NCBI GenBank assembly: GCA_008632985.1
Contig: QPGO01000022.1
Span: forward strand, 434,001-498,000
Direction: 5' to 3'
Source of the DNA: Psammoneis japonica
Lineage: Eukaryota
Length of the DNA: 64,000 bases
This document shows, one piece after another, positions 6,252-64,000 of the stretch. Each line of letters starts with the position of its first letter. Position 1 is the first letter of the stretch. The notes below the pieces were generated by a model. It did not search any database. It was not told the origin of the DNA and saw nothing but the letters and a program-made list of their open reading frames with translations. Both the position numbers and the translations under genes were made by a program.

Positions 6252-6803
6252 GACGTGTTCCAGTCCCAGGTGACGCACAAAACGACAATTGATTTTGAAC
6301 ACAAATTGTGCATCTTTTGGTGCATGGAGCATTTTCATGTGAAGTGCTCGTGCGGATTGGCTTTTGTGGGCGGCCAGAGCATGAACATTTAAATGGTTTT
6401 TTGTGGGGCATTCAAGTCCTCATGGGACATGCATCACAAACTTCCTCAGCAGACTCAACACTGATTGTGCATCAGCAGATTTACACTGAGATTTCTTTGC
6501 AGGCAGAAAACCCACCAAGCAGCATCTTAAAAAGACACGTTTGGGTGACATCCAAATGACGGCAACATTTTCACCGAAAATCATCCGTTGTGTTGCGAAT
6601 CTTTTGACACAATGAAAAACACAGACAGCACAACAACAATGACCTTGCAACACTCACACGAGTCTTGTCAGTGTTGCAAAACATTTGTGTTTGCACGAGT
6701 CTGTGCTTTTGGTGGTGAAAGATCGATCGTAAGTTGGGGGCCGCAAAAATCGCACAAATGTTGTTTTGTGCACAATTTGGTTCACGTGCGGCTGGAACAC
6801 GTC
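6252..6803. mobile_element. MITE / non-autonomous DNA transposon, copy A
   Basis: Perfect 12-bp TIRs GACGTGTTCCAG...CTGGAACACGTC and a 4-bp TSD TGCT (6248-6251 / 6804-6807). Homologous along its length to 6973-7528. Confidence 0.9.
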
Positions 6804-6972
6804 TGCTGCATGATGCTGGATGTGCAGCATGTGCAGTGCTGCAGCCTGCAGAGGCACACGAAAAGTTTTGTTTGAATGAAAGCAATGACAATGGACAACA
6901 ACGCAACAGCTGACAACACACAACGCCAAAGCACGGGGAGAGCGGAGAGCGGAGAGCGGAGAGCGACCATGC

Positions 6973-7528
6973 GACATGTTCCAGTCCCAGGCAATGCACA
7001 AAACAACAATCAATTTTGAATGTAAATCATGCATCTTTTGGTGCATGGAGCATTTTCATGTAAAATGCTTGAGCGGATTGGCTTTTGTGGGCATCCAGAG
7101 TGCGAACATTTAAATGATTTTTTTGTGGGGCATTCAAGTCCTCATGGGACATGCATCACAAACTTCCTCAGTGGACTCAACACTGATTGTGCGTCAGCAG
7201 ATTCATGCTGGGATTTCTTTGCAGGTGGAAAACCCACCAAGCAGCATCACAGAAAGATGCACTTGGGCAACATCCAAATGACGGCAATGTTTTCGCCAAA
7301 AATCATCCGTTGTGTTGCGAATCTTTTAACGCAATGAAAAATGCAGATGGCACAGTGACAATGACATTGCAACACTCACACGAGTCTTGTCAGTGTCACA
7401 AAACATTTGTGTTTGCACAAATCTGTGCTTTTGGTGGTGAAAGATCGATCGCAAGTTGGGGACTGTGCAAAAATCGTGCAAATGTCGTTTTTGTGCACGA
7501 TTTGGTTCACGTGCGGCTGGAACATGTC
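6973..7528. mobile_element. MITE / non-autonomous DNA transposon, copy B
   Basis: TIRs GACATGTTCCAG...CTGGAACATGTC and a 4-bp TSD ATGC (6969-6972 / 7529-7532). Confidence 0.9.
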
Positions 7529-8061
7529 ATGCCAACAAAAGACAACCCAAGATCCAAAGAGCAGCAGGAGCTCAAAAGGAATGCCAAGAACACAAAAGGA
7601 AAGAGAAGGAGGAGAAAGCGATGCGCAAACAGGAGCAAAACCGGTTGCACAAACAGAAGAGTCGAGAGCGGCAGAACGAAGAGCAGATCGAGTGGGAGAA
7701 AGTCGCTCGAATCGAATGTCGAGAATGTGAAAGGCTGGAGAAGGTGGAGAAGCAGGAACGCCAATGAAAGCAAAACCGGGAGCGCAAACAGAAGAGCCGA
7801 GAACGGCAGTGCAACGCATCAGTCGTGGCCGACGGCAATGATGCCAAGACCACCAACGGCAACACGCAGCGCAACTTGAACACGGGTGTTGGTCGAGCAC
7901 CCAGACACAGTCCTGGCGATGAAGAAGCAAGTGCTCGAAGATGGAAGAAAGTGTCATTCCCCACACACGAACGCTCACATCATTGTCAGGAAGAGCGAGC
8001 AAACGTGAAACCAGGACAATTGTACGTGCGTGGATTCCTGACACTCCGTCTTGCCATCTGA
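7529..8061 (+). pseudogene. Relic charged/coiled-coil ORF whose ATG lies in the MITE B target site
   Basis: ATGCCAACAAAA (MPTKDNPRSKEQQELK...) followed by K/E/R/Q-rich frames broken by a frameshift and a TGA. Confidence 0.35.
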
Positions 8062-8182
8062 CTCAACAATCTTTCACCGACAGCGCTTCGTGCTTTTCTT
8101 CAATGAGGAGTCGTCTTGCTTGCTTGAGCGAGGTAGGAGTTGGTCGAAAAAGGCTTCTCTCTTCGTTCCACCATCCTCCATC

Positions 8183-15831: not shown

Positions 15832-18800
15832 ATTTTCAGCCTGTCAGGGTTCTCTCCAAGTTCAGAGGGTTATCCACGCTAGATGAATGTAAGCACAGCT
15901 GTACATGTCGAAGGCTTGGAGGAGACTTATAGATGCTACCTGTGCTTTGGCGTTCCTCAAGATAGTACGGCAAGATTATTGACGGCAATCATTTCTTTAT
16001 AGAACTAGTAACCGCGACTCCGACAGACACAACAACGTCATGTTTTTGGTCCAAAACTACCTTTTTGTTTCTGCCTAGATCCGAGGTAAACGATTCGTTG
16101 TCCTCTGCCTTGCTTCTGCCATGCCCCGAGCAGGAAAACAGATCCCATTTTCCTTTGTGATATGTTGAATGCAAGATACGTCTTCTCTCGACAATTGAAA
16201 ATACTGGGAACTGTTCCTGGTTTCTGCGCTCGCAAAATGACATAGAGACCGCTTGTTGCAAAAATACACAAGAGTCTCTTTTTGTCGTTTCGTCCTTGAA
16301 CAACAGGTTTTGCTCCTTGTTTCAATGTTCGCTGCAGCTAGACTGTGATAATACTTGCGCAGAATAGATGCTTGTTTGGAGTCTATTTCTCGATGTCCAT
16401 GAATGATGACCTGGAGAATGAAGATCGCTTCGGGCCCACCTGTTCAACACTTCCCAGTGACAGGAATTGCTCGTGAGAAACAGTCAGTGGTCATTGTCAA
16501 CAAGTCTTTCAACAACTGCAGCATCATGTCCAAGTCTCACCAGTGGCCTCACAGTTCTCCTCAAACATTGAGGAGCCAGTGCTGTGGGTGTGCAAGTGAC
16601 AGTGCTTGAGGATGGAAACAACTGGCATCACACCAGCAACAACAACGTTGATCCTGTGTGTGTTCACTTTGCACCCACATCATCCCAAGAATCATTGCAA
16701 AATGTTTGATCACTGTGCAACACAAAACAAGAACAATGGAGAGAATGTAAGAAATTGGTGGACAAAGGCCAGTGCACCAGAGCCAAGGATTGAATCATGG
16801 CATTGTCCAAAACAAAATTCTGTCAAATGTCATTGCCCCATGCTCCACACAACAAGACAGCCCCTTCTGTTGATGAGATGGCTCTTGCACCTCAAAACAA
16901 ATGATGTTGTCTTGGCATGAGAGCACAGCAATGGTTGAGACAAAAGCCCATCACACAACAGACCAAAGAGCAAGCAATGAATGAGAATGTTGTTGTGGGC
17001 ACTCCTCTGGCTGGGAATGGAGGGAGATGTGGCAGGAGCAGTGCAGCATGAACACTTCATTGCAAGCACTGGTTGACTGTCACATCATGATTGACAACAA
17101 ACTTGAAAGAACTGGTGCATGGTGGCTCACAAGTGCTGCAGGAACAACAGCTCAATTTGCTTTTGCTTGACAGCTTTGTCATTGGCACCTGCATCCAGTG
17201 CTGTCAGAGCCTTGGTGGGACATGTTGTTGGCCAACAGGCTCCTGATCCAACAAAGCACAACAAGATCCTGCGTTGATTTTGAAGATTTGTGTCACAATT
17301 TTCAAGGTTGTTGTGCCCTCAAGCAGCTGCTGGATTGAAGAAATGCTCAACAGCAAGATTGTCAAATTAACAACCACAAAGTGGACTGCATCACAAAGCA
17401 CCTCAGTTGTGTTGCATCACCCATGCAAGGACATCATCAGCACCCCTTTGATCTCAACAAGACTGACCCAATGAAAAAAGCTGCACTCAGAAGCAAGGGC
17501 ATCAAAGGTTCTTGGCAAGTGAAGAAACAGGTCTCAACCTTTTTTGCACCTCTCTCTAACTTTCAAAAGCACATGTCCTTGCCCATGCTTCTGCAAACTG
17601 TCCACAGATGGGCTGCTCTGTGGTGGCTTTGCCTGCAGGGACCCCTTTGCAATGAGGCAGCATTTTGCAGCTGTGTGGTGGCTCCAATGTTTGATGTTGA
17701 TGACATGGTGGCCAAGTGCAGAGACACATGTTGTTGGCTTGCTGGCTCCTGCCAGAAAAAACAAACATGGGTGGCAACCAGCCAGTGCTGAAAACTTCTG
17801 TGCACTTGGCAGGGCTCTCAGCTGGCTGTGCTTCAACAAACTGCTTGTTGCAGCTGGCTTGCCTTCTGTCAAACCCCTCAATGTGGTGGTGCACCCCCAG
17901 CAACCCAGTGCACATGGTTGTGCTGCAGCAAAGATTGTTTGAGCTGCCTTTTCAAAAGTTGCTGGGGACCTTCAGTGGTGAAGCAAGCAACCATTGCTGC
18001 CCCTGCAAACAAGTCAACATTGCTGGCTGGAGTCAAGAGTGGCCCAGGCACAGAAAAAGGAAAATGCAAAAATGCAAAGCTGTCTCTGTCCACTGACAAA
18101 CAGTTTGCTTGCTTCTCCACAGCCATCATCTCATCAATTCTTGGGGTGGCAAAGAAAGCAGTGGCAGCCCTCTGTCCCAGCTTGCTCCAATGGACAGAGA
18201 GAAGACATGAGGCTGCAGAGAACAGAGATTGTCAGACCAAATTGGAGCAAATCAACTCCATGACATCCTGCCTCATTGCAAAACACAACAGCCAAACCAG
18301 AACAAAGTTGGCATGCAATGAACACTCTCTCAGCTTTGTTTGTGGCAACAAAAACACAGAAAAGCTTGTTGAGTGACAGACCAGCCACCATTCTCAACTT
18401 TGAAAAAGGCTGTGGCATTGTTGAGCTTGTTGCAACTTGCAACAACATGAGGTGTCAGCAAAAATGATTGATGAGACTGTGGGAATTTTTGTGAGTGAGA
18501 TGCTGGCTCCAGCTCCAAGTGCTGGCACACATGTGTGCCTTGATGCCCCCTCCCCCCCACACACACACACTTCAGTGCAAAGTTCTTCTTCAATTTTTGA
18601 ATCTTTTTTTCAAAATCACAAGGTGAGTGTGCACAAGTGCATGCTCCACCAGCCCAGCATTTCTGCTGTGCAGGTGATTTGGAACACCCAGCCAAGTTTC
18701 TGTTCTTTTTGCAGATTGGTGATGTGCTTTGGCCACTTGGTTTGGCTTTTTGCCATTTGCAATCAGGTGTGAGATCACCACTTGTTGACTTTGCTCTTGG

Positions 18801-19559
18801 CTCTGTGCTGATGTGCCCCCAACCCAGCATCTCACTTTGCCCCTTTCTTGTTTGAAGCAGTTGGTGCATGTGCACAACAGTGGTCCACAGCTGACAGCCA
18901 TGCATCCCCAAGGGAAGCTCTCTGGCTCTCCAAAATGAGCAAGGGTTGGCAGTCAAAGAAATGGATTTGACTTGGCAGATGAAAGTGCACAAGAACCTCC
19001 CTTGTTGCTGCAGAAAGGAAGCACTGCAAAAGCAAGAGATGACAAACAATGGACTTTGTTGTTTTGTGTCATGAGGCACTGGGAGAGTCCAGCCCAGATC
19101 ATGAGCAGCAGCACACAAGCATCCAACCAGGAGAAAGAAGATCATGAAGGACAGCAAGATTCAGCCAGCAGCACAGAGAGTTTAATAAAGAAAGCTCATG
19201 CTCTGATGGTGGCATGAATGCCAAGGGTTGCAAAAGAGTCATTTTGTGGTGGAGCAACAAGGGGCATTGCAAATTGGTTGTGGTGAAGTGCAGATTGCAG
19301 ATGGCAATGCCATGTGAGCCACCCACAAGCAAGTTGGTAAATGCCAAGCCAAAGAGCCTTGCATGTGTGCCACATGGCAGCATCATTGTGGTGCAAGATG
19401 AAAAAAAAACAGATCCAATTTATGGTGCTGCCACTTCTTCACCAGCCAGGCCAGTGCTGGCTGACTCACACTCCCAGCACATTAAAAAAAATGCAGTGCC
19501 AGAAGGTGACACCCAATTGAAGTTGCTGAGAACGGCTGGAGTGCTGCAAAGCCTGAAGA

Positions 19560-20700
19560 GCTTCACTTCCTTTGTGCTTGCATTCAGGCATGGTTTAACT
19601 GCAGAGACCCATTTTTTGTTCTTGTTGTGTGAGTGAGCAAGGTGCTCCCCACATTCTCCATCAAAATGTCACAGTCCTTGGCAAGGCATTCTTGTCTTTT
19701 GTTGTAAATGGCAGTGAGTTCAGCCTCTCCCACCCAATGCTGCAAGGACTTGTGAGATTTGATGTCAAGGCCATGCACTTTCTTGTTGTGCTCTTCCCAC
19801 AAGCCTCACCAGGAATTCCCAATGCATGTGCCTGTCTGCACTGGCCAGGTGGGTGGCTGGTCATTCTGTTCTTGACATTGATGCAGAAGACCCAACTCAC
19901 ACAGACACATCTCCTGAAAGGCACTCCACAGTCATGAGAACCTGCTGTTGAACATTTGCCTCCATCCCATGTCACTCTGTTGTGCCACAAAGAATGCAGC
20001 ATCAGATCTGCGTCTGAATCACAGAAAAATTGGCCATGGAACTGAGCCTCCAGAGACAAGAGAAGAAAATCACACAATGGAGGCATGGTGCCTGACACAT
20101 TGCAATGTCAGTGCAGTCCTTGAAGAAAAGTGCAATGCCAAGGTTTGTTGTCTGGGCAACGGAGAATGTGATCCCTGTCTTCTGCCCATGGGGTGGTCAC
20201 AAGAGAGGCAGGAGTGAGGACAGACTGGGTTGTGCCAATGGACAATCTTGTTTGCAGGCAGCAGCTCACAAACCAGTTTCGCTGTTGAGATGTGTTTCTT
20301 GGAATGCCGGCGGATCAATGTTTTGTGGACAGGCCAATCCATTGTCTGTCCATGACTGACAATGACCAGCCATTGCCACTCTCTGATGTGCTCCAACAGT
20401 GGAAGAGCTGCAGCTGCACATCGTGTGGCAGCCTCATGTCCAGCAGTGATGGCACTGTCCTCTGGACAGAGGCAAGCCTGACAATGAGGGAATGGGATGA
20501 CCTGAGAAGTGTCGTGATCACACAGACCTTGACAACACCCTGCCAACATGTCAGCTTGGACATTGATCTTTGCATTTCTGTCAACCACCCACTTTGTCAA
20601 ACAAGGGTGGCTGTTGGTGCTGCCACTTTGAATGACTTTGCAGTCAGGCACAGAGCAGTTTTTGGCAACTGCAATTGGATGTGCCACTGTCTCCCAGCTC
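19560..20700 (-). mobile_element. 3' part of a non-LTR retrotransposon ORF (RNase H end + zinc-binding region), degenerate
   Basis: NVQADMLA (RNase H N..AD.LA), MDW...KLVCELLP...CPHSCLSC and WEEHNKKVHG resemble LINE C-termini. Confidence 0.5.
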
Positions 20701-20867
20701 TGTGGCTTCCTCCTGGGCTTGAGAAACTTTGTCCTTCTTGCTTGGCCTTGTGACACATTGGTGCAAATCATGCAAATTTCATGTTTGTTGCTGTGTGGGG
20801 TGGGTGTGCTTGTTCACCAACAAGTTGCAACCCATTCCAATGAAAAACAATGGAGGCTTCAAAGATG

Positions 20868-21348
20868 CTGTGTGCACAGGGCATTTGTCTCAACAGCCTC
20901 AGTTTTGACAAGAAACAAGTGTCCCACCAGCACATGTCAATGGAAAGCACCACAACACAACTTGTCATTGAACTGCCCTCACACAGCAACTTCTCATTGT
21001 TTCTTCTGACCACAAAAACAGCACTGCTGCCATGACCCAAAAGAGCACAGTGGTGTCCTGAGTTTGGCTGGGTTCAAAAGGGTTGCTTTGATGAAACCCA
21101 GGGATGTTGAGGACACTGTGTGCACAGGGCATTTGTCTCAACAACCTCACTTTTGACAAGAAACAAGTGTCCTCCAAGCACATGTCAATGAAAAGCACCA
21201 CAACAAAGCTTGTTGTTGCACCCTCACACACCAGCTTCTCATTGCTTCTTCTGCCCACAAAAACAGCACTGCTGCTGTGACCCAAAAGGGCAGAGTGGTG
21301 TCTTGTGCTTGGCTGGGTTTAAAAGGGTTGCTTTGATCAAACCCAGGG
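20868..21348. repeat. Tandem duplication, ~248-bp unit x 2
   Basis: CTGTGTGCACAGGGCATTTGTCTCAAC...AAACCCAGGG occurs at ~20868-21103 and ~21116-21348. Confidence 0.9.
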
Positions 21349-24300
21349 CCATTTGTGCACTTGTCATGCACAGAAATTTGTGCCAAAACCATGCTTGCAC
21401 TGTTGGGGCACACAACTTGTTTTGTGCAAAAAAAAAATTGAGCACAGCAGCAAGGGCACACTTTCCATGCATTCTGTGCCAAATGACTGTGACTCTGGCA
21501 AGAAGGCAGTCCTGGCTGTCATGTCAAAACAACTGCCATGCTGCACACTTTTCCTTTTTTGAGTGAAACCACCATGTTGTGCACTTTTCTCTTTTTGAGT
21601 TCCTTGTTTCTCCTTGGCAACTTTGGTGGGGCCACATCTTGTCTTTCTTGCACAAAACAAATCCCAGTGGCTTTATGGAGAGGAGCACAACTTGTGCTTG
21701 GGTCCTCTTGTGCTCCTTTGTGAAGGACATCAACATCTGCTTCTCTTTGGTTGGATTTTTTGTTGCGCACTTTTTGCTTCTTGAATGATGCCTTGTTTCT
21801 CCTTAGTGTCTGTCAAGTGGACATTGTCAGCCAGCCCCAATGTGCAGTCATTTTCAGTGTCACCCTGGTGGATGCTTGCCATGCCACCAGCAAGGCTTCC
21901 CACATGCCATCACACCATGGTGCACCCCACAAAGGCACCAAAATGTGTGTTCTGGACCTGTCCAAACTCACCACATGCTCCCCATGCACCAGGCAACTGC
22001 TTGCATGCTGTGAAGCTCCATGGTCATGTGCTTCAACCAGGAGACACATCAGCACAGAACTGTGCAGGGGAGTTGCACACTGGAGCCCACTGCCTGGACA
22101 CACAGCACACCAAAGTTGTCCCACCCCTGGGTTCTCACCTTGGCCTGCTGCCACACACAGTGGCATGCTGCAACATGATGATCTCCCCATGGGCTGTGGT
22201 TTGATCCCTCAAAACAGTTCCCCATTGTTCTGCATCTGAGTGCAATGTTGCCAATTGCTCCCAGAACACTCTCTGCTTGGCAGGGCCATGTCTTGCCTTT
22301 GCAATGATCCTTTTGAGGAACACCAAGTGATGCCTGGCAGTTTGTGGTTGGATTGCTTGTGTGCCTCTGCCCTGTCCTTGAGAATGAAATTAAGCTGTTG
22401 TGCCAGCAACTGTGGCAGAGTTGTTGGGGCTGATCTGACAACCTTTGAAGACAGGCAAGCAATTTGTGTTGCCAGATTTTTGTTGTTCTTGTTGTTTTGC
22501 ATGGCCAGCTGCAGCAGTGGTTTGCTTCCAACACAAAACTTGTTCCGTGCAACTTTTTTGTTGGACCAGCTCTGGCTGCTCATGATGTTGGCTGCCACAG
22601 CAGAGAAAAGTCCAACATCCAACATGTTTTTTGTCAACAGAGCTCCCCACCAATTGTCTCAAGTTGGACAAAGACAAGGTCAATGTTTTGCCTCCCAAGC
22701 CAAGCCCCCCTCCCACAAAGCAGCACACCAGGCAGTGCAGCACAAAGTCGGCCGGAAAGTCATGTGTGCCAGGAGCAATGTGAGCAACAATGTTTTTGCC
22801 AGAATTGTCAGAATTCATGAAAGCAGCAAAGCTGGACACTGCACTGGTGTTCTCTTCTTCAATGAGCAAGAGAACAGACAAAGATGGCCTGACAAGCAAG
22901 AGTCTGTCACCCACCCCACAAACACCAGCACCCAGCACAAAGAAAGGGCAGGACATTCTCTGCCACTGCAACAGCAAGCTGTGTGATGGCCAATGTTTTC
23001 AGCAGGGTGTGCTGTGTGCTTTGCTTGGCAACAATGATGTCATTTCAATCCAATGTCAAAGCTCATGATGGGCCAGCTGTGCACATGAGATTGCTTGCCA
23101 AGAGCCTCAAAGGCACAAGCTGCCAAGCTGTGGCAGGGTGCATGAGCTGCCTTCAGTGGCAGCAAATGCTGGAGCCAACCCCAATGTTGCCACCTGTGGC
23201 TGTGCAATGCTGCACTCACATCTGAAACAGTCTGAACCAAAAGCACAAAAGAGCTGTTGCAGGGCATGCAAATGTTTGCATGATGTGCAATGGCAAGGGC
23301 TGGCCATTGAGCAAGATCTGTTGAGAAAGGTTGAGCATCATGTGGACATCAGCTGGGCAGGCTTTTGGCAAGACTGCCTGTTCAATGAGATCTCCCTGTC
23401 TTCTGTGCACCCTCAGCCCCAAGCACTGCTGCAAAGCACAGCACATTGTGTCACTGTGTCCTCTGCTTTGTGAGAAATTGTTGACATCACAAGCTGTGTG
23501 GAGGAGCTGAAGCAAAGAAGTTTTCTGTTGATTGCTGCAATTTTCAGAAGAAGGTTGTGTTGGGCGTTTGAGGAGAACAACTCACTGTGCCAGCCACAGA
23601 AGCACCTGTCTGCACATCTGCACCACATGCTGCATTTGTGCCAAGCCAACGGAATTGACAAGCTCGTCAAAGTGCATGACAAGTCAGCATCATGGCCTTC
23701 CTCATCCAGCTGCCAGGGAGTGAAAGGAAATCATGAATCTCCTGGCTGAGAGGCAGATCTGCCAGCAGCTCTCTCATGCACCTGAAAGCAAGTCAGGCCA
23801 TTGCAAAAGTGGAGATTGTGGGGCTCCTGTTGATCACCTTGCTCCCCCCCTCCCTCTCACTTTTGCCACAAGCACACTTTGCTCTACCATTTGTTTGGCT
23901 GGGTGCTCTTTTGACGACTCTTGCAAATGCAGCAACAAGCCAGATGCATGGCTCAAGCCCTGATGGTTGCATTTGATTGACTCAGCTGGCTTGTGAGCGC
24001 ACAACATCATTTGTGCAAAGAAAAAAACAAAAGTTGCAGCTGAGCTGTGACATTCATTGTGAGCAATTTCCTGCTGAAATTTCAACAAAAACTCCTCACC
24101 AACCATGCTGAGAGTGATGCTGTGATGCTTGTTGTCATGTCTCATTCCGCATTGGAGGCACTTGTTGTGAAGGGAAACCAGCGTTGGCCAGGTGCTCTTT
24201 CATCTGCAATCACACAGGAAAACAATGACAGGGCTGAGAGAGAGAGAGAGAGAGCCAACATTCTCTGATGTGATGGCCCAGCTGAGTGTCAGTGCTTGCC

Positions 24301-25377
24301 AAAAAGAAGTGTGAAGTTCTTGGACGACAAGGGGTGCTGTTTGCTTTCAATGCTTGTCAGGTGTGTGGTCCACCCCCACCCAAATGTCACATTTTTCTCA
24401 TGACACAAGAATCAAAAATGATCCAGAGTCCTTGAGTCAGGGCTGGCCAACAAAAAAGAAAAAGCTTGCTGAAAGCTTGCGCACTTCAACATTTGTTTTT
24501 GAAGCAAAGCAAATGCCTCCCCCCTCCAAGGCAGGGCTGCTGGAGATTGGTGTGCCAACCTTGTCCAGCATTGCTTCACATCTGTTGTGGAAACAATTTG
24601 CACACCTGACACAGCAGCACTGAGCACATTGCAGCTGACTGCATCTCTCACATTTGTGCATGAGTGCACTGACACCAGCACCCAGCAGCTGCAGCAGAGA
24701 TGTTGGGGTCACGTGAGATGGATGACAAGGGGCATGTGGCAAGAATCCTGGCATCCATTGCTGCACAGCATGCAGGGGTGTGTTGTTGACAAGGTGGGCA
24801 AGTGTGGAAATTTTGCTGCAAGTGACATGTGCAGGCTCCTTGTGAGAAGATTGCTGCACCAGCAGCAAGAAAGAGGGAAGAGAAAGGAGGTCTGAGTTTC
24901 ATTTCAGCAGCAGCAGCAGAGCCAAGAAGCTGTGGAATGGCATGCAAGAAAAATGGCTGGTGAGGTGGTTGATGTGGAGCCACCAATGGCGTGGGGGACA
25001 GAGCTGCGTTGATCAGTGGAGCAAGACATGCAGTTGTCGCATTGAGAGCTGTCGTCACAGTCAAAAGAGTAAGGGAGCAAGGCCCAGGAAATGAGCACAA
25101 AGATGGGAAGTCTCGCATGCGGGCCACTGCACGAAGTGCTGTAGACGGTACCACGACACCGTGTGAATATTTCTCGTATGTAGGAGGTATACTACGAGCA
25201 CGTATCAATCGATTTTGGATGCAGTTGGAAGTCGAAAAAAATAGAGTTGAATGACAATAATCCACAATGGGTGTGGGTGCAAACCCCGTTCTCGCGTTAC
25301 ACCGCTGGACTTGTAGCCCCCTTGCATTGAAAAGTAGAGTTGTCACGTCCTCCCTGTCTCTTCCATATTAGGACGCC

Positions 25378-28715: not shown

Positions 28716-31700
28716 ATGATGCTTTCGAGGAGTTCATACGCAGCTCGATCGGCGTTGATTGCGTCGCTTCGCAAAATTTCTGCCGCCCACGTCAGATCGG
28801 CAAAGGTGCGGCATTTGTTTGCTGCCGGGGCTTCCACACGTGTGGCATCGGCCTTGGATCTTTCTTCCCGCCAACAGTCGACAGCTGCGTATGATGATAT
28901 CGAGGAAACTGTGGGTGCTTCCAATGGCCATGCCGCTGCAGCAGCGATGAATGTTGCAGGATCACAAACTGAAAAGTCTCATCAGGAAGCCTGGATGGTG
29001 AACCTAGGACGCGGGAATGACAACGAATGGCTCTCTGGTGCTCGTGATGAAGAATGGTTTACTGGAGTGCCTCCCTCTGTTTGCCCTGGTAAGGCTTCTG
29101 GCGGCCGTTTCTCGAAAACGGTTTCTAAGTGTCATGGAAACAGTGTTCTTACGCTTGGTAATCTCTCTCAATCCTTTTTCAGGCGTAGATAGCGCTGGAA
29201 AGATTCGATCATTGCCTCTACCCAATCTTTCTGCGGTTACGCGTCAATCGGCGAAAGAGTACTTCGATAACTCATGGACTTTATTTGAGACGCTTTTTGC
29301 CGGTTTTGTTGGCGAGGAGCCCTTCTATCGGTAGGTTGTTGTATCTGCTGAATAATCGTGGCTTTGACTTTATGCTGATGAAATGAGCTCACGACGGAAA
29401 ACTTGGTTTCAACCTCAGCCCTCCAGTTCATGGACTGCGTCACCCACAAGTGTTTTACTATGGGCATACGCCATGCCTGTACATCAACAAGCTTCGGGTG
29501 GCTGGCGTTCTATCCAAACCCGTGAACGCGTACTTTGAAAGCATTTTTGAAGTCGGTGTCGATGAAATGCTATGGGATGACATGCACAAGAATGACATGC
29601 TATGGCCGACTGTGTCCGAGGTACACGAATATCGAAAACAAGTATACAAAACTGTTGCTGACGCCATCATGACACACCCGTCGCTGGATGATTCAAACGG
29701 TCCAGTCCTAGTGAACCAGGAGCATCCAATGTGGGCGCTATTCATGGGATTCGAGCACGAGCGAATCCATTTGGAAACAAGCTCCGTTCTGTTTCGCGAG
29801 ACTCCGTATCACCTTATGCAGGTAAGTAGCTTTCGATTTTGAAAGCTTCACTGACGACTTCATAGCATCGTGATTGACGTTTTGGCGTGTGTACGTCTCT
29901 TCACAGACTCCTGAGAACTGGCCGCCACTCCATCCTTCTGCTACGAGAAGTAGTGTCAAATCACACCCGACTGAAGGAATTGACTATCCTTCCAACAAAA
30001 TGATTTATGTTTCAAAGGACAGCGTGGATCTAGGGAAACCGCCAAACTTCCCGTCTTTTGGATGGGACAACGAGTATGGCGAAAGAAAGGTTGACGTTCC
30101 ACCGTTTCTGGCTTCTGAACACATGATCACAAACGGCGAGTTTTGGGAATTTGTTGCGGATGGTGGCTACAGAAATAGGGAGAACTGGTGCGACGATGGA
30201 TGGGAGTGGCGCAGGCACCGTAACATGAAGTGGCCTTTCTTCTGGGAACCCGCCGGTCCTGCGGTATGTGCACTACAGTTTTGAATCATCTTCTTTTGGA
30301 GATTTGTTTGTTTCTTATTTTTTCTTTTCTCTTTTCGTACTCGATGGCAGGGTTCTCACGAGTACTCGCTGAGAACGATTTTTGAGATAGTCCCCATGCC
30401 CTGGGACTGGCCTGTAGACGTGAACTATTACGAAGCTAAAGCTTTCTGCAGGTGGAAGGTATGTATCAGAGCGCTTCAATCACTGTTATAGACTGACATC
30501 TGCCTCTTTCTAACCTCAGCTGCAATATCAATCATAGACGAGAAGGGATGGATCGCCCAAGTCAAGACCTTATCGCGTTCTCACGGAAGCCGAGCATCAC
30601 ATAATTCGTCATCGAGAGCATAGTCTGGATGCTGCTCGTGCTGATGTGGATGCAGATAAAGTAATGGCTACCGGTGGTGATCTTTTCGCTGAGGGATCAA
30701 CTGGTTCGAACCTGAATCTTGCGTTCTCGTCGCAGAACCCCGTTGACTATTTTGCCGCTTCCCATACCGGTCACCGAGATACGACAGGAAACGCTTGGGA
30801 ATGGACTGAAGACCATTTTAATCCTCTTAAAGGCTTCGAAGTCCATCATGTGTATGACGATTTTTCAACGCCGTGCTTCGACGGAAAGCATTCTATGATT
30901 GTAGGTGGATCATTCATCAGCACCGGAGACGAAGCATCCGTTTTTGCCCGATTTCATTTTCGGCCTCACTTTCTCCAACATTCCGGATTTCGACTTGTAG
31001 CGTCAGATCACGACGCTCCATCCACGCACCTTTACGCGGGTGAGTTTGAAGGTCAGGCGGCGGCACGTGAATCACAAAAGGAGGGAGAAGAAGAAGAAGA
31101 CGAGACGACTATTCAATCTCACAATGTATACGAGACCGACGAATCCCTCCACATGTATCTGGGCTTGCACTATGCTTCTTCGGGCGCCGAGGAAGGGGTT
31201 GCTGCAATTCTTCCACATGAAAACGCTCCTACACACGGATTGCGATTTCCTCAGCGTGTTGCGAAGCTTTTGACCGACTTAAAGCCAGTCCGTACAAACA
31301 ACACTGCTTTGGATATTGGATGCGCAGTTGGGGGTGCATCTTTCGAGCTTGCCAAGACTTTTGAAAGAGTCGATGCATTCGATTTCAGTGAATCCTTTGT
31401 TTCGGCGGCCCGGCACATGCAATCCGGTGATGCTATGGAGTTCAATGTTCCTGTCGAGGCGGACCTTTTCGAAACTGTAGCTGCTGTTCACGAGGACGGA
31501 CTTACAGCAGAAATGCGAAATCGTATCAACTTTTTTCAAGGAGACGCTTGCAGCATCAATGAAATGGCGGCTTCCGGTCAACTGGGCACGTATGACGGTG
31601 TAATCATGTCCAACTTGCTCTGCCGCCTGCCCGACCCTGTCGCAGCTCTTGATGGCTTGCCCCACGTCGTGAATGAGGGAGGTGCTGTGGTGATGGTAAC

Positions 31701-31926
31701 TCCATTTAGTTGGCTAGATGAGTTCACACATCGTAGCAAGTGGCTTGGAGGTTTCTATGATCCTGTTTCGGGTAAACCCTTGCGTTCAGAGGACCGGCTT
31801 GAAGAGCTGATGGAAGAGCGCGGTTTCAAGAAGATCCATGATTCCGAAATGCCTCTGGTGATTCGGGAGCACCAGCGCAAATATCAATACATTGTTAGTA
31901 AGGCTACGGGATGGCGAAAAGAATAA
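28716..31926 (+). CDS. ovoA: 5-histidylcysteine sulfoxide synthase OvoA (DinB + FGE-sulfatase + SAM methyltransferase), 5 introns
   Basis: FYYGHT..YINKL, GVDEMLWDD, the iron motif HERIHLE, FGWDNEYG, GNAWEW, FRPHFLQHSGFR, LDIGCAVG and IREHQRKYQY. Introns at ~29089-29182, 29331-29418, 29822-29906, 30263-30350 and 30459-30537. Confidence 0.93.
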
Positions 31927-33911
31927 TCTGAATGCAGGTCGTCCCTTTGAGAGCCAGTTGCTGGGATAACTGTTGTGAGGGGGGAGAGATGCTGTAGACT
32001 ACTGTAGAGTAAAGAGACTTGAAAAAGTGCTAAAGGATTCGAATTCTTGCTGTGTGCTTTTTCCTAAATGCAAAACATTGAAGCAGCACGGAAGCAAAAC
32101 TAGAGCGAAGCTAAAGTCCATCAATGAATGTTTTAGGGTGAAACATTTTCAATTTTGGTCAAGAAGCGAACATGCGCAGGCCATTGGGGTAACATGATCA
32201 TCTATCTACGACTAAGTCTTCGTTGAATTCCAACACGGCGTCGGGCAGGCAGAGCGGATGGATAGAATGGCTGGCTAGAGCCAAGGCATGGATGGATGGC
32301 ACTGGATGGATGGAATGGACAGCCATGGATGGAACTCATGCCGAGCAAAAAGCACATGGAGCCATGCCCATTCACGATGTGTCTTTTTCGGATGTCATGG
32401 ATGCACACAACAGATGGCTCCCACCTCAAACAGCCACATTGCCCATGAAGTGTCGTAAGTTGAAGAAGATGTGTTGGATGTTGATTCCCAGGTGGACATT
32501 GCAAGCGCCACTCCAGTGAGCATCAAGACAACTGCTTTGCCTTCTGCCTCACATGTGACCTCTTTTGTTGGAGTTCTCACATGTTTGCAGATTCCAAGTG
32601 GGGCCCAGTTCACACATCTCCTGCCAGCTGTGCTGCTGACAACGTGTCTCAAGCTGCAGATGCATCAGCCATTGGTTCCCAGATGGACACCTCGAACAAT
32701 GTTTGGATGAGTGTCAAATGTCTGCTGTGTCTCACCTGAGCCATCTGCAGCAATTTTTCATTTTGGCTTGCTGCTGTTCTCCACCAGCTTGATGGCATGC
32801 TTTCATCAAATGACAAGGCAAGCCTGCTCCAGACCTGCAGTGCTTTTGTTGTTCTGGCTGTGCAATGGCTGTCACATGCATCAGATGGGCAGATTGTCAG
32901 CTTGGAGGCTGTGCTGCCTGCTTGCTGCCTCTGTGATGCCATGGTGTGACAGCTGTGGCGTGGGTGCAGTCAATGCTTTGGTGGTGGCCAAATCAACTCA
33001 TGCTTGGATTTTTGGCTCTGACAGCTGTCAATGATTTTGGATGCACAAAGCCAGCACCATTGCTTCTCTCATCTGAGCAAGCATGACCAGTGGAAGCTGG
33101 GCAACTGTGAAAGGGGGCGACCAAATGTTGTTGCACCTTCCACCACTCTGTGACCGCTTGACCTCTTTCCTCCACAGTCAATGCCGTTGTCATGCTGCAC
33201 AGTGCTTTTCATGGGGTGCTCCTGACTTGTCAATTGTTGCTGGCCACAATTTCACAGTTCCCACCAGCCAGGGGAGAGAGCAAGAACGTGGCAAAGAGGA
33301 AGCATTCAAGCTCAGCAAGCATGGAAGAAACTGTCATGATGATGCCTCATTTGGGAGCCCATGTTTCAAACAGCAGCTGCAGCCTGATTCTCACTTGCCA
33401 TGCACCCAATTTCTTCTGACATTGAGTTGCTCAATCACAAAATGTTTTTGTCCTGCATGTTTTTCAGGTTTGAAGAATGGTGTGGGGCATGTGTTGCTCA
33501 ACAAGATTTGTTGGAAACTGCTGATGATGCTTTTTGTCGAAGTTGAAGTTTTTGGTTTGTGCTGTGCAGCTGGGCCTGGCCATTTGTTGCATCATCTGGC
33601 TTGCCAGCTTGCCACCTTTCTGTTGAAAGGTTGTTTTTGTGGTGCACTGTTGCAGCTCTGCGATCTTCACTTGTTGGACAGACATTGCAGATCAGGAGAG
33701 AGCAGTGTCAGCATGCGCTGGACCTGGGTGCATGTGCAGATCTCTCTGAGATCTCTCACTTTCTTTCATCTGGCATCATGCTCACTGATGCTGCTGTCCC
33801 AGCATCTTGTTGGGTCACTGCCCATGCATTGTTGTGTGAGAGATCTGCTTGGCTGTCTTGTTCTGGCTGTTGTGCAGTGATCCACAGAGTTGGTGTGCTG
33901 ACAGCGATGGC

Positions 33912-33913
<2 letters not shown>

Positions 33914-33982
<69 letters not shown>
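33914..33982. repeat. (GA)n microsatellite (shorter tracts at ~24236, ~35237 and ~35543)
   Basis: Perfect GA dinucleotide run. Confidence 0.98.
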
Positions 33983-33984
<2 letters not shown>

Positions 33985-34099
33985 GCTGTTGCCATCTCAA
34001 GCCAGTCAACAAGTGCATCACAAGATTGCACTTCTGCCTGAAAAAAAGCAAAAAGTGGAAGAGAAGTGGAAGTTGGGGGCAGTGTTGGCAGAAGGGAGC

Positions 34100-35542
34100 A
34101 GACGACAAATTACAAAAAGTCGCACGCAAGCAACCATCTTACTTTAAAAGCTCGTTGTACCTCAAGAATGAGCTGGTCCAAATGGCAGCACCACCAAACT
34201 GCCTGCTTTTCACCTCTGATGCCAAGTCCTGCTGCTCGAACATCCCAACAAACAAAGCCCTTTGAGCAATTGCGGCCTGTCTATGATGACACAAGAATGA
34301 ATTCCAAGACGCACCAGCAGAAGCCCTCATTGAAGCCCTCTGCATCACAATGAAACACAGTGTCTTTGCTTTCGGTGACACCACATGGCTCCAACGCAGT
34401 GGCACCGCAATGGGCACACCACCTGCCCTGCCACATGCCACGCTCTTTTGTGCTCTACACGAAGCCACTCTCCTGGAGGAGTTTGGCACAAACCTGGTTT
34501 TCTGCAAATGATTTATGAGTGACGTCTTTGGCATCTGGCAAATTGCCAAATCAACCTCCGACGCCACTCGCTGGAATGCACTCACCTCCAGAATGAATGA
34601 CTGCAACATCAATTGGGTCACGAGTCCAAGGGCCCACCAAGCAAACTTCATGGACCTCACCATCACACTCCAAGGCTCCAACCCACACACCACTCTTTAT
34701 GAAAAAGAAATGAATTTACACCTGCACATCCCTCCACATTCAGCTCACCCACCTGGAGTGCTCACCGGCCCAATTGTGGGCATGCTCTTTTGCTTCAAGA
34801 ATCTCTGCTCAGACCCTGCTGACACAAAAGCAAAGATGAAACTTCTTTGCCATTGACTGCTTGCTTGAGGCCACAAGCCCAGCAAGCTCCAACCCATCTT
34901 CCAAAAGGCATGCAACCACCTCTTTGGCAATGAAACAACTGTGAACAAGCCCCCAACCAATCCTCCCATCTTCCCACATGTCCCATGCCATCTGAACAAC
35001 CCACCATCCAGCAAACTGCAAAAGACATGGAAAGGAACGATGGCCTCTCCACCACACTCCCAGCCACTTGCCAACATTCAAAATCACAACCAACAAAACA
35101 CATTGGCCCAGACCACATGATCATTTGCTGCAATTGGTCAGGCAACCTTGGCAACCTTCTTTTGTGCCACATCCTTCACACCTCCAATGGCCCCCCAGTT
35201 TCGTCCCACCGGATTACAAGCAGGGAGGCCACTGTGAGAGAGAGAGAGAGAGAGAGAGAGAGTGCAATGACATGAATTCAAACTGAATCAATCGACTCAA
35301 ATCACCTTTCCCTTGCCCCCGAATCTTTTTAACATGACAACCTCAACCACGTAAACAACAACAGTCAGCCGCTGATGAAGCCACCACACGAAAGTCTCAC
35401 TCCTGACTTCGGCCAACGTTGTTGTGCCTGCCATTCACTGAAACAGTTGGGTGAAGATCTGAGCTGGTGGCTCCACCTCAGCTGCTCTCATTCTTTGTTT
35501 GTCATGTTTGACAGAGAATTGGCTGCACCAATTCCTTTGTTT
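34100..35542 (+). mobile_element. 5'-truncated Penelope-like retroelement (RT + thumb; no GIY-YIG seen)
   Basis: Motifs LFTSDAKSCCSNIPT, FAFGDTTWLQRSGTAMGTPPA, K*FMSDVFGIW, FMDLTI, TTLYEKEMNLHLHIPPHSAHPPG and NLGNLL. In-frame TGA stops. Confidence 0.85.
35356..35424 (+). ncRNA. Type I hammerhead ribozyme (Penelope-associated)
   Basis: CTGATGA core at 35372-35378 and GAAA at 35390-35393. Stem III is AGTC/GACT. Stem I is CAACAAC-A-GTcaGCCG / CGGCcaAC-GTTGTTG. Stem II is minimal. Confidence 0.7.
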
Positions 35543-37116
35543 GAGAGAGAGAGAGAGAGAGAGAGAGCTGCTTTTGCCATCTCAAGCCAGTCAACAAGTG
35601 CATCACAAGATTTGCACTTCTGCCTGAAAAAAAGCAAGAAGTGGAAGAGAGGTGGAAGTTGGGGGCAGTGTTGACAGAAGGGAGCATCCCTGGAGAGTGG
35701 CCTGCCATGCTTGCTGCCAGCAAGCACTTTGTTTGGGGCTCTTTCTGTCTCTCTCTTTTCCAAAAAAGAAAGGATGAAATGCACAGCAGAGCATGTGTTT
35801 TGATGCCAGCCATGGAGGTTGCAGCTCTCTTCTCCTTCCCTCAAAGGTTTCTCATGAAAAAAGACTCCAGAACTTGAAGATTCTTTCTGCTGGGGCTGAT
35901 GGCATTGTGACAAGTTTGTTGCTGCAGTGTGGAAACTGCCAGAGAAAAGAGAAACAGTGGTGAGTTGCGATGTGACCATGTGTGCCCTTTTCTCCATCTT
36001 TCATTCCAGAGATGAGAGCACCAAGTTTCGTTTCTCATTCCTCTCTTTCTGAAAATGTGTTGCCACTTGTGGCTCTCTTTCCTGGGCAACTCTGCTCATG
36101 TGAAAGAGTGCGCCTTGTTCTTGGAGGAGCGCCGCAAGAGTGAGGGGGCGCAGGAGTGGGAGCAAGAACCAGCACTCGAAAATTTGGTGCCTGGCGGAAG
36201 CAGAAAAGGGCCTCTTGCTTGTCAATGCAGCAGGGATGGTCACCATGACCACTTTTGGACTGAGCCACTTCTTTGTCCCCTCCTGGCTTTCTGGCTGGGT
36301 GGCAGAGCGACCTGGGATTTTTTGACTGCTGGTGTGCTCGCTTTGACTGCCGGTGTGCTTGCCATCACAGCTGCAGAGCCTTGATTTGTGCTTGGTCACT
36401 TGGCTTGATGAAGTGGACTCCAGATTTGTTCCATTCCACCAGGGGCATTTTGTTTGTGCTGCTCGAAAAAAGGCTGGAATCATCGATCCCACATTGTTGC
36501 ACACTGCCCTGCTCTCTCCATCCACCCCCTTGTCACCTGGCTGGCGCCTGGCTGTACAAGAATGCAGAATCTGGAATCTTACTGAGTTGCTTCTATTTTA
36601 CCCTTTTGTACCGGTTACTTGTTCCTGTGCGTAGAAATCCACTGGGAAACATACCAAGTTTCCGCCGGGGCAACTTTTAGTGATAAATTCGACGGTCAAG
36701 AGGTAGGTTGACGATGACGAAGGTTGTTGCCGCCGCTACTCCATTTGAATTGTTGTCGACGATTGACAAGCCGCTGTTTATAGCCGTATTATGTTTGCTG
36801 TTGGTAATGTTGGCGACCAGATTGATCGTGGGGAGAGCAGTGCTTGCAACTGGATGGGGAGCACCGCGGTGTGCGTTGTAGCTACCATGAGGAACAGAAA
36901 CAAACCTTCGGATGCCACTTGGATCGAATGAACTGAATCTGATATGACTGATATACTTTGTGTTTTCGATGCAAGTGCTTGGTATTTCGAGATCGAACCC
37001 GTTCAAGTTGAAAGACCATAGAGTTCGCGTTTCATGTAGTGTCACTCATTCGTGTCTTTCCTCTTGTTTTCAGACTTTTGTCGGTTTCCACTTTCGTTCA
37101 ATCACACGCTGGAATC

Positions 37117-61989: not shown

Positions 61990-64000
61990 GCACCATCGCG
62001 AACAGTGTGCCTGTCGCTGACTGAGCTTTGTGCTTCGGTTTAATCTTGAAATCTTTGTCTTTGTTCAGTTCGCGTCACTCCATCCTCTAGCAAATCCATC
62101 TGCAAACATGGAAGACGACCATTCCTGCTCCTGTCGACCACCAACAGTTCAGATGGACTGTGTTTGGCATCATCTGATGAGAGTGATGAGTCCTTGTGGC
62201 CACACATGTGGCCTGTGGTTTTTTCTGTTTTCTCTCTGCCAGTTTTTTTTTTCCAGTGCCTCTGAGCAGTGCCCCCCAAACAATGAAGGTGTGTGTCCAC
62301 CCATCACCAGGGCTGTTGGTCCATCGCACAAGCTGCACGTGCCCAGAACCTGCAAATGTCAGACATCAGATTTGTTGCAGTTGCCACACTGCTGTGCTGG
62401 AAAAACAGCCATTTTTTGCCAAGCAAAGCTGCCCTTCCTGTCACAAACAATTGGCCACAACTTCCAGGGATGAAATGGTTGCAACAACTGGCACTTGACT
62501 GTCAACGTCCCTGGCTGCAGTTGCTGGAGCTCTCCAGGCTGTTGACCTCACACACATGGTTGCAACTGCCCAAAACAGATTCCATGTTTTCTCAAAAGCA
62601 AAGCAAGAAGTTGCATCTGTTGCTCAGCTTTGTGGATTCCAAAAATGTCAAGCCCCAGACCATTGACTTGGTCCATCCTTGATGACACACACCGGCAAAC
62701 ATGCCAACTTGGTGTTTTCTGGTGCAGCATGATGAGCAGCCTTTTTTCAGCAAAAATGATTGTCGTGTGTTTTGCCAGATGCCTTCCCCCCAGCCCCTTT
62801 CTTGCAACCCTCAAAGTTTTCACCACACTGCAATGTAAGATCTGGCTGTCTTGGGTGCAAGTGCTGCAAAAGGTGGCAAAGTTGTGCACAAACTGGGTGT
62901 GCAGCCACATGTTGAGGCCAGCTGACTCTCTTCCACCATTGTTTTGCATGGTCCAATTTGTGCCAAGCCAAACTCTCATCTTGCAGGTGTGGACAACAGC
63001 ACGTGCTGATTTAAACAGCTTGGCTGCATGCCTGCAGTTCCCAAATCTGTTGAGATGCAGCACAGAATTTGCACCATTGCCGCCACATTCTGCAGGTTCA
63101 GTGCTTGACACAGGCAAAGGAGAGCCATGCTCTGGCACAATGGACAATCTCACTTGTTTGACCAGAGCTCTTGTGATTTGCACCATGGCCACATCTGCAA
63201 GCCGCGTGCATCCAGGCCAGAATTTCTGTCCAACAGATTGAAAAAAATGGTGGAAAGACAGGGTTTGATGCTGGTGTCTTTCAGGTGCAAAAAAGGGCAT
63301 GTCATGCACAACCAATTTTGTTCTGCTGTGCAAATTCAGCCCTGTGCTTTTGTCTGACAGCCAAATTGTCTGCATTTTGACATCTCTTGTTCTTTTTGTC
63401 AGGTGGGTGAACAAAAGCTTCTGCTTTGCAAGCACATAAAATTTTCCACACAGGCATCAGAAAAATTGCTGAAATTGCAGCCATGCACTGGTTTTTGCTG
63501 CCATTTCTCATTTTTTTTCAACTTGGCTGTTGTTGCCACCAATCTGCAGTGCCATGTTGGGCTTCACATTGGCAAGATCATTGACTTTTTCTTTTCCCAC
63601 ACAACTTGCCTGTCACCTTCTGATGTGCCACCATTTCTCACCAACAAGAAAGCTCCAACACCTGCAGCTGCACTCACATTAATTTGACAACTCTCCTCAT
63701 TGGCTTGGTGTTTGCTCATTGCAGTGGTGTCCCTTGTGCCTCTGTGCTTTGGCCAAACAAACTCTCATCTCTGCTGTGCAACTCACAGCTTCAGCTGCTC
63801 CAGCTGATGATGGCCATGATCCCTTTTGCAATGGCTGTGTTTTGTGAGTCTTGTGGTGGGGCACCTTCAAAAGCACGGACCTTGCACAAGTGGTTCCCTC
63901 ATCTTTCAAAAACATTTTTCTGTCTCCTTTCCTTGCTGCAGAGCCCATGTGCCCTCCAGAAGTTGATGTTGTTGGAGCAGATGACTCAGCAAGTTACAGC
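61990..64000. repeat. Transposon-derived block, TpA/CpG-depleted (runs off the window)
   Basis: About 7 TA in 2 kb, and Tyr-free Cys/His-rich ORFs. Confidence 0.8.

Follow-up and report, generated by a model that had tools for sequence, protein, structure and literature searches.

Tyrosine codons of a Penelope-like reverse transcriptase relic in Psammoneis japonica record the erasure of TpA dinucleotides

What removes almost every conserved tyrosine from a protein and leaves cysteine or histidine in its place? The question is raised by a reverse transcriptase (RT) relic found at positions 34098-35209 (+ strand) of a 64,000-nucleotide stretch of the genome of Psammoneis japonica (GenBank assembly GCA_008632985.1, contig QPGO01000022.1, positions 434,001 to 498,000 of the forward strand; this whole stretch is called the window below, and its numbering is used throughout). 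A first-pass annotation had noticed in it that the conserved tyrosines of a Penelope-like element (PLE) were systematically replaced by Cys or His. Comparison with intact homologs indicates that the relic, a 5'-truncated and frameshifted RT of an endonuclease-less PLE, is a clean protein-level read-out of a process that erases TpA, for which there is one published precedent, in another lineage.

The relic was delimited with a profile of 120 intact homologs, those listed from protein collections, in which 269 of 980 candidates matched it at E <= 0.001; the matching proteins are typically 590-660 aa long, and the closest, P0002, is 49% identical (E = 6e-93). An exhaustive HMMER scan of cluster representatives rendered 5699 matches at E <= 0.001, of which 304 reach E <= 1e-30. 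According to the profile, the relic spans the last 60% of the protein. Its first frame, at 34101-35102 (profile match from 34098), corresponds to profile positions 258-597 (hmmsearch i-Evalue 3.1e-127), and beyond a frameshift placed near 35103 a C-terminal piece in another frame, recovered at 35105-35209 (+) by profile match and alignment, continues to about profile position 632, reading ..MIICCNWSGNLGNLLLCH..PPVSSH against a homolog consensus of ..MIIAYSRPxNLGNLLSYR..PPVSSY. The motifs SCCSNIP (34227-34247), PALPHATLFCA (34422-34454), VFCK (34497-34508, followed by TGA), TTLYEK (34689-34706) and MNLHLHIPPHSAHP (34710-34751) lie in a common frame of the + strand. Translation of 34092-35234 in a single frame, with X at stops, gives 381 residues with seven TGA codons, and the TGA stops in the true frame are six (34263, 34284, 34287, 34509, 34854 and 34866); no open reading frame (ORF) of the window runs on past 35234 at the relic. 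A second copy of the relic was not found in the window by tblastn, blastn or profile search.

Alignment columns were counted when the consensus reached at least 50% with at least 60 homologs present, the two frame pieces being aligned separately to the profile. Tyrosine is the consensus in 15 such columns and has been kept in two (34158, TAC; 34698, TAT). Seven carry Cys, always as TGY (34233 TGC, 34278 TGT, 34449 TGT, 34503 TGC, 34986 TGC, 35129 TGC and 35165 TGC), five carry His, always as CAY (34434 CAT, 34725 CAC, 34872 CAC, 35055 CAC and 35207 CAC), and the remaining one carries Phe (34446). Sites 35129, 35165 and 35207 are in the other frame, beyond the frameshift. Columns with a consensus other than Tyr or Arg were kept in 144 of 192 cases and lost in 48, so that the loss of Tyr is highly significant (Fisher's test, p = 2.9e-6). 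Arginine was kept in none of its 10 columns, which now read TGA (four), CAC (three), TGC, TGG and AAG (p = 2.1e-6 against the others), nine of the ten fitting a change of CGN to TGN or CAN. With the consensus raised to at least 90%, Tyr was kept in 0 of 5 columns and Arg in 0 of 5, compared with 78 of 88 for the rest (Tyr versus rest, p = 5.8e-5). Active homologs that naturally carry Cys or His at these positions do not account for the pattern, since those sharing the relic's residue at the 12 Tyr columns number 0, 0, 0, 0, 0, 0, 3, 1, 9, 1, 1 and 1 out of 112-120.

The check proposed with the first-pass annotation, an alignment to intact homologs with a count of Tyr to Cys or His changes, therefore yields a clear excess over other replacements, and its explanation by TAY to TGY or CAY applies to every genuine Tyr change, because each of the 12 codons is one transition away from TAY. 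Two details of its motif readings do not hold. In SCCSNIP the Cys at 34233 does replace Tyr, but the first Cys (34230) replaces a Met present in 117 of 120 homologs; in the HLH of MNLHLHIPPHSAHP the His at 34725 replaces Tyr, but the first one (34719) is natural, 71 of 120 homologs having His and 49 Tyr at that position. Its attribution of in-frame stops to CpG decay of CGA codons agrees with four of the six TGA, which fall in Arg-consensus columns. Transitions of TA or CG to TG or CA alone account for 14 of 20 changed columns with a consensus of at least 90%, 15 of 30 at 80% or more and 28 of 71 at 50% or more, and these include two Pro (CCG>CTG), a Ser (TCG>TTG) and the Ile of the YxDD box (ATA>ATG).

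The DNA around the relic has been affected in the same way and to a greater extent. A two-state segmentation on TA counts places the relic in a 4.25-kb intergenic tract (32301-36550) that lacks most TA and CG and lies between host-gene blocks. Observed against expected numbers in this tract are 13/267 for TA (a ratio, o/e, of 0.05), 58/264 for CG, 470/262 for TG and 437/268 for CA. Twelve of the 13 TAs are at 34111-35352, within the relic, and none is found in 32457-34110 or in 35353-36500. With 12 TAs, the 1442 bp of the relic exceed the remaining 2808 bp of the tract, which have one (p = 2e-5); for CG the numbers are 28 and 30 (p = 0.025). The o/e values for TA, CG and TG+CA are 0.13, 0.34 and 1.59 in the relic (34101-35542), 0.01, 0.16 and 1.94 in the left flank (32301-33916), and 0.00, 0.25 and 1.53 in the right flank (35687-36550), while the normal blocks that hold the host genes have 0.60 for TA, 0.99 for CG, 1.14 for TG and 1.15 for CA. 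Intact relatives of the element in 80 metagenome loci range from 0.45 to 1.13 for TA (median 0.67; CG median 0.87), and judged by TA o/e none of these 80 loci is purged. The insertion is less mutated than its flanks, as had been proposed from the few TA left in it, and this is probably because it is younger.

The tract is one of five (1-1750, 2251-8100, 16401-25050, 32301-36550 and 62101-64000) that alternate with normal blocks along the window. Together these purged tracts cover 22.4 of the 64 kb and retain 70 TAs where base composition predicts about 1426, while TG and CA have almost twice their expected frequency; counted in all six frames, their stop triplets are 1023 TGA, 75 TAA and 29 TAG. 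It could be argued that neutral pseudogene decay, together with natural variation, is enough to explain the relic, because transitions are the commonest substitutions, TGY and CAY are the two products that transitions can give at a TAY codon, and the His at 34719 is indeed a natural variant. A loss of 13 of 15 Tyr columns against 48 of 192 others, the TA o/e of relic and left flank compared with gene blocks and relatives, and the near-exclusive use of TGA among stop triplets are not what such decay produces, and we find this explanation scarcely credible. As an account on its own, neutral decay is refuted by these three sets of counts.

When did the mutations arise with respect to the insertion? 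A self-comparison revealed that the relic is bordered by a direct repeat of 143 bp, composed of (GA)n and a 118-bp unit, whose left copy (33958-34100, +) adjoins the 5' end of the relic and is 96.5% identical to the right copy (35543-35686, +). In contigs from sequencing run X1 the repeat has single-copy depth, which makes it look like duplicated target DNA and neither like a pseudo-LTR nor like a part of the multi-copy element. The 118-bp unit is free of TA and CG in both copies, as would be expected if the target had already been purged when it was duplicated; in that case the process would have been active before as well as after the insertion, and we infer that the TpA process acted at both times. 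The relic would then be nested in older, fully purged DNA, the process having acted at least twice or continuously. A third (GA)n is present at 35236-35263, directly after the ORF. A target duplication of 143 bp is unusually long, which may bear on intrachromosomal insertion by an element without endonuclease.

A different history would be that the relic was mutated before or during retrotransposition, either through ADAR- or ADAT-like editing of its RNA or cDNA or because a dead, mutated master was copied in trans, and that none of the changes arose in place. Being 5'-truncated, the relic was dead on arrival anyway; no TA-type difference separates the two copies of the 143-bp repeat; and the adenines edited by ADAR tend to follow a U, as Mettrop et al. 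note (bioRxiv 10.64898/2026.01.13.699255). Editing of a single RNA strand would leave one class of change, yet the relic has both in similar numbers, seven Cys (sense A>G) and five His (sense T>C; binomial p = 0.77), and the flanks, which do not belong to the element, have been purged further. Other copies of the family speak to the same point. In run X1, 149 contigs fall on 32000-37000 (with a likeness of 90-95% for 78), and their summed depth, which is not copy number, goes from about 60 in the flanks through 97-543 in the ORF part to 3131 in the bin 35340-35506 (about 50 times the flanks). The relic is therefore a member of a multi-copy family, whose most repeated segment, judged by this depth, is the 3' untranslated part of the relic (35264-35542, +). 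In one other copy the Tyr column 35055-35057 reads TGC and not the CAC of the window, and positions 34942 and 34947, which are TG or CA in the window, read CG. From these reads of a few sites, a glimpse and no census, the differences between copies appear to be independent, copy-specific hits at the same sites. Such opposite products at one Tyr codon, the balance of the two sense classes and the more thorough purging of the flanks favour mutation of the DNA in place, and an origin of the changes before insertion seems improbable to us.

The Tyr codons of the relic also allow the process to be scaled. As these codons were TA sites with near certainty, the 2 of 15 that remain are a clean estimate of survival, equivalent to about two hits per TA site. 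For the rest of the protein, 10 of the 88 columns with a consensus of at least 90% and other than Tyr or Arg have changed, four of which are explained by TA or CG transitions, leaving 6 of 88, or some 3% per non-synonymous site; between the two copies of the 143-bp repeat, 2.8% of sites differ. On these figures, the rate of change at TA sites since the insertion would be of the order of a hundred times that of other sites, a lower bound because some of the six residual changes may predate it. The suggestion that the insertion could calibrate the rate holds in a relative sense only, by comparing the relic with its flanks and TA sites with other sites, as the insertion carries no absolute date.

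We propose that a PLE copy of about 1.45 kb, 5'-truncated and without endonuclease, with a hammerhead ribozyme in its 3' part, would have entered a tract already depleted of TA and CG, and would then have been mutated where it lay by the same pair of processes, affecting both of its DNA strands: an A:T to G:C transition limited to TpA (TA to TG or CA), and a change of CpG to TpG or CpA. In coding terms the first would replace Tyr codons (TAY) by those of Cys (TGY) or His (CAY) and the ATA of Ile by a Met codon, the second would turn Arg (CGN) into a stop, Cys, Trp or His and Pro (CCG) into Leu, and the two would leave TGA as the sole stop codon. We would give this reading a probability of roughly 0.8. 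Several points weigh against it. The ancestral codons were deduced from homologs that are 38-49% identical, not observed. Half of the changed columns with a consensus of at least 80% (15 of 30) are outside TA or CG transitions, so ordinary decay or lineage divergence contributes too. The copies of the repeat differ by four substitutions and one indel (2.8% of sites), none at TA- or CG-derived sites, and their differences therefore hold no direct evidence of TA being lost once the element had inserted. Some of the mutations could also have been carried over from the source copy. Finally, run X1 probably derives from the same sample as the window, and is then not an independent proof of its sequence.

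As to chemistry, the confinement of the changes to tracts outside the gene blocks would fit an enzymatic, region-targeted editing of silenced or foreign DNA, for which, by analogy with Bigelowiella natans, adenine deamination to inosine would be the simplest reaction. Some algae modify T preferentially in TpA, and 5-formyluracil is mutagenic towards T>C. The same history could hence have been driven from the thymine side, with T in TpA converted by a TET/JBP-type enzyme to 5-hydroxymethyl- or 5-formyl-uracil, which mispairs with G and leads to T>C; as TA is self-complementary, A>G on one strand is T>C on the other, and the counts suit both chemistries. The sole published proposal for this signature, itself only a proposal, is ADAT2-like adenine deamination, and we consider the thymine route a minor possibility, on balance unlikely. 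Loss of CpG is typical of 5-methylcytosine deamination, and the CG depletion seen here would most simply reflect deamination of methylated cytosine.

The loss of TA and that of CG are separable. Tracts 1-1750 and 2251-8100 have a TA o/e of about 0.08 with a CG o/e of about 0.69, and tract 16401-25050 is depleted of both (TA 15 against 568 expected, CG 30 against 514 expected). One of the metagenomic relatives (L006) has a CG o/e of 0.23 with an ordinary TA o/e (0.53), that is, CpG decay without TpA erasure, in another host.

Nor are the surviving TAs drawn at random. TTAA makes up 19 of the 70 surviving TAs of the purged tracts compared with 57 of 1677 TAs in normal blocks, an 8-fold enrichment (4.4-fold with element DNA of the relatives as baseline); a further 37 of the 70 have a T before or an A after on one side only, and ATAC and ATAT together are absent from the 70 survivors, in contrast to 360 of 1677 in normal blocks. 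In the tracts other than 1-1750, crude TA survival is 0.59 where both sides are protected, 0.10 where one is and 0.025 where neither is. These values fit hits that fall independently on the two strands and are each slowed about 8-fold where the target A precedes an A. This context bias, calculated with an assumed original composition of the tracts, may be taken as a lead.

The assignment to PLEs, made at first from motifs, is supported by the TERT-like fold of a homolog, by the DK(N)LG motif of the relatives, and by hammerhead ribozymes. The AlphaFold2 model of P0002 (mean pLDDT 88.9) has as best PDB match the Tribolium TERT 3du5_A (E = 3.5e-8, 589 columns, template-modelling score 0.38-0.40), followed by viral RNA-dependent RNA polymerases, retron RTs and group II intron RTs. 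Among the relatives the (F/Y)IDD motif is invariant, and in 32 intact ones D147, K148, L150 and G151 of the DKNLG motif are invariant and N149 is conserved in at least 90%. In PLEs, a DKG motif lies N-terminal to the RT core, taking the form DKA in Naiads and DK in Chlamys (Craig et al. 2021; PMC8557442); this region is outside the relic, which starts at profile position 258. Pfam detects in the aligned relatives nothing or a weak RVT_1 (in 1 of 32; 7.7e-5 in P0027), a PDB sequence-profile search with the 32-relative alignment gave nothing meaningful (two matches, E > 0.1), and the Atlas clusters of look-alikes carry DUF8422, HTH_animal and RVT_1 and come mostly from rotifers and arthropods. 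No Pfam match to GIY-YIG was found in the 32 relatives, and since the homologs stop some 5-35 residues after PPVSSY, at 590-704 aa, there is no room for this domain. Craig et al. (PMC8557442) name hammerheads and frequent 5' truncation among the features of PLEs, and partial tandems that form pseudo-LTRs are another. Truncation at the 5' end is seen in the relic, and contig depth increases towards its 3' end. These comparisons support the classification of the relic as a putative endonuclease-less PLE.

Downstream of the ORF, at about 160 nt, a decayed type-I hammerhead ribozyme is predicted at 35355-35425 (+) from its core pattern (CTGATGA...CGAAA, 35372-35393) and its fold. The pattern CTGATGA-N(6-30)-CGAAA has a single match in the 64 kb, with 0.45 expected per window. 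In the fold, helix I is formed by GCCG/CGGC and extends to ACAACAAC/GUUGUUGU, helix III is intact with an A-U closing pair, the NUH triplet as read off the sequence is CUU, and helix II is broken. Among the 80 loci of relatives, a rule-based scan detected this arrangement 14 times, in 13 loci (L012, L018, L024, L031, L032, L036, L039, L045, L046, L058, L059, L062 and L071), mostly 200-400 nt past the ORF; all 14 are on the RT-sense strand, none is antisense, and none appeared in 50 shuffles. L071 has one at each end, 4211 bp apart. Helix II of the relatives' ribozymes is often of just 2-3 bp following an unpaired A, and its register varies between subtypes. In the closest relatives, L012 and L024, the sequence is ..CGC-GAAA where the window has ..CAC-GAAA, and the same decay appears to have disabled the ribozyme of the window through a CpG to CpA change in helix II. 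Rfam searches were negative: no family at E <= 1 in 31500-37000, chance-level snoRNA matches alone in 35290-35480, and no hammerhead detected by the models of Rfam 15, either in the window or in those loci of the relatives that were scanned (16 of 80). Cervera and de la Pena (2014) describe PLE hammerheads of fungi and protists with an unpaired base 5' of helix II and a sizeable helix III (PMC4209133), and the hammerheads of the window and its relatives share both traits with them. Being common to the relatives, the hammerhead supports the Penelope-like assignment. In run X1, other copies have loose ends at 35435 and 35450, where they continue into TA-rich sequence. Unmutated copies of the short hammerhead-bearing segment (35340-35506) seem to exist elsewhere in the genome, and they are possibly small non-autonomous elements.

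All ORFs with host-gene domains in Pfam are within normal blocks, and encode hydrolases, Utp11, a WD40 protein, a DAO/GCV_T dehydrogenase and a fused tryptophan synthase, among others. The GC content of the purged tracts (0.48-0.54) is like that of the remaining window. The skew of their stop triplets to TGA gives rise to long spurious ORFs, and Pfam gave no match for those of 224-277 aa at 2920-3753, 7205-7879, 18330-19145, 20070-20771, 22288-22986, 33083-33880 and 62548-63375. No sequence of the flanks of the relic (32301-33957 and 35687-36550) matches elsewhere in the window. Pfam is practically blank on the relic as well (a sub-threshold T2SSC, E = 0.077, alone), its Tyr and Arg being gone, so a protein-based annotation of transposons or genes would miss or misread tracts of this kind.

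Compared with known systems, the relic shares with the endonuclease-deficient PLEs of the Athena and Coprina clades a TERT-like RT without GIY-YIG and 5' truncation (PMC8557442). It also shares with them a sense-strand type-I hammerhead, present at both ends in L071. It differs from them in being interstitial, between host genes and without telomeric repeats, and in being flanked by an apparent target duplication of 143 bp, which begins within a (GA)n microsatellite. The absence of GIY-YIG from the 32 relatives sets it apart from the endonuclease-containing clades (Penelope/Poseidon, Neptune, Nematis, Naiad and Chlamys). The telomeric repeat unit TTAGGG was searched for as arrays of at least two units of this type, or their TA-erased derivatives, and none was found on either strand of the whole window.

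A better-known mutator of repeats is repeat-induced point mutation (RIP) of ascomycete fungi, which acts mainly at CpA, where C becomes T, so that TpA arises and the DNA grows AT-rich. In common with it are dinucleotide-specific transitions that are confined to repeats and transposons and fill ORFs with missense and stop codons. Here, in contrast, TpA is destroyed, TpG and CpA are created and there is no AT enrichment. Moreover, the single-copy flanks are more mutated than the multi-copy relic, so that a dependence on duplication is not evident.

Much closer is the mutator of a chlorarachniophyte, known from a 2026 preprint and so far the only one described that is TpA-specific, turns A:T into G:C and is directed at foreign DNA. 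Mettrop et al. report that in B. natans giant-virus and virophage DNA integrated in the genome undergoes A>G/T>C hypermutation at TpA only, which arises de novo in mutation-accumulation lines, at a rate of about 1000 times the background, propose an ADAT2-like adenine deaminase, and find RT and DDE domains enriched in TpA-poor coding sequences (bioRxiv 10.64898/2026.01.13.699255). The words diatom, tyrosine, stop codon, context and trinucleotide do not occur in that preprint, and literature listings and the opening parts of abstracts gave nothing on TpA erasure in diatoms. The corresponding features in P. japonica are the replacement of 12 of 13 lost Tyr by TGY or CAY codons and the purging of five tracts with the host-gene blocks spared. 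Were an unrelated alga to provide a second case, and one close to saturation, this would point to a eukaryotic genome defence that is widespread and opposite in direction to fungal RIP. Taken further, the alga may run a long-lived, region-targeted editing at the DNA level that converts TpA to TpG or CpA in both strands of foreign or repeat sequences that are silent, avoids TA before A, largely sparing TTAA, and stayed active after this insertion, so that nested insertions record relative ages; it would be a distant second instance of the Bigelowiella-type hypermutation and part of an ancient, widespread defence whose chemistry is opposite to that of RIP. We put forward this wider interpretation tentatively, its chances being in our opinion a little short of even. 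What the two algae share is the nearly exclusive A>G/T>C change at TpA, giving TpG or CpA according to the strand, its confinement to regions of foreign origin, and a direction that opposes the usual GC to AT bias. In B. natans the process was caught de novo and its targets keep many TAs (rho 0.45 in a viral region), whereas in P. japonica it is deduced from a finished, near-saturated pattern (TA o/e 0.01-0.13) that extends over whole intergenic and transposon tracts and is accompanied by the loss of CpG.

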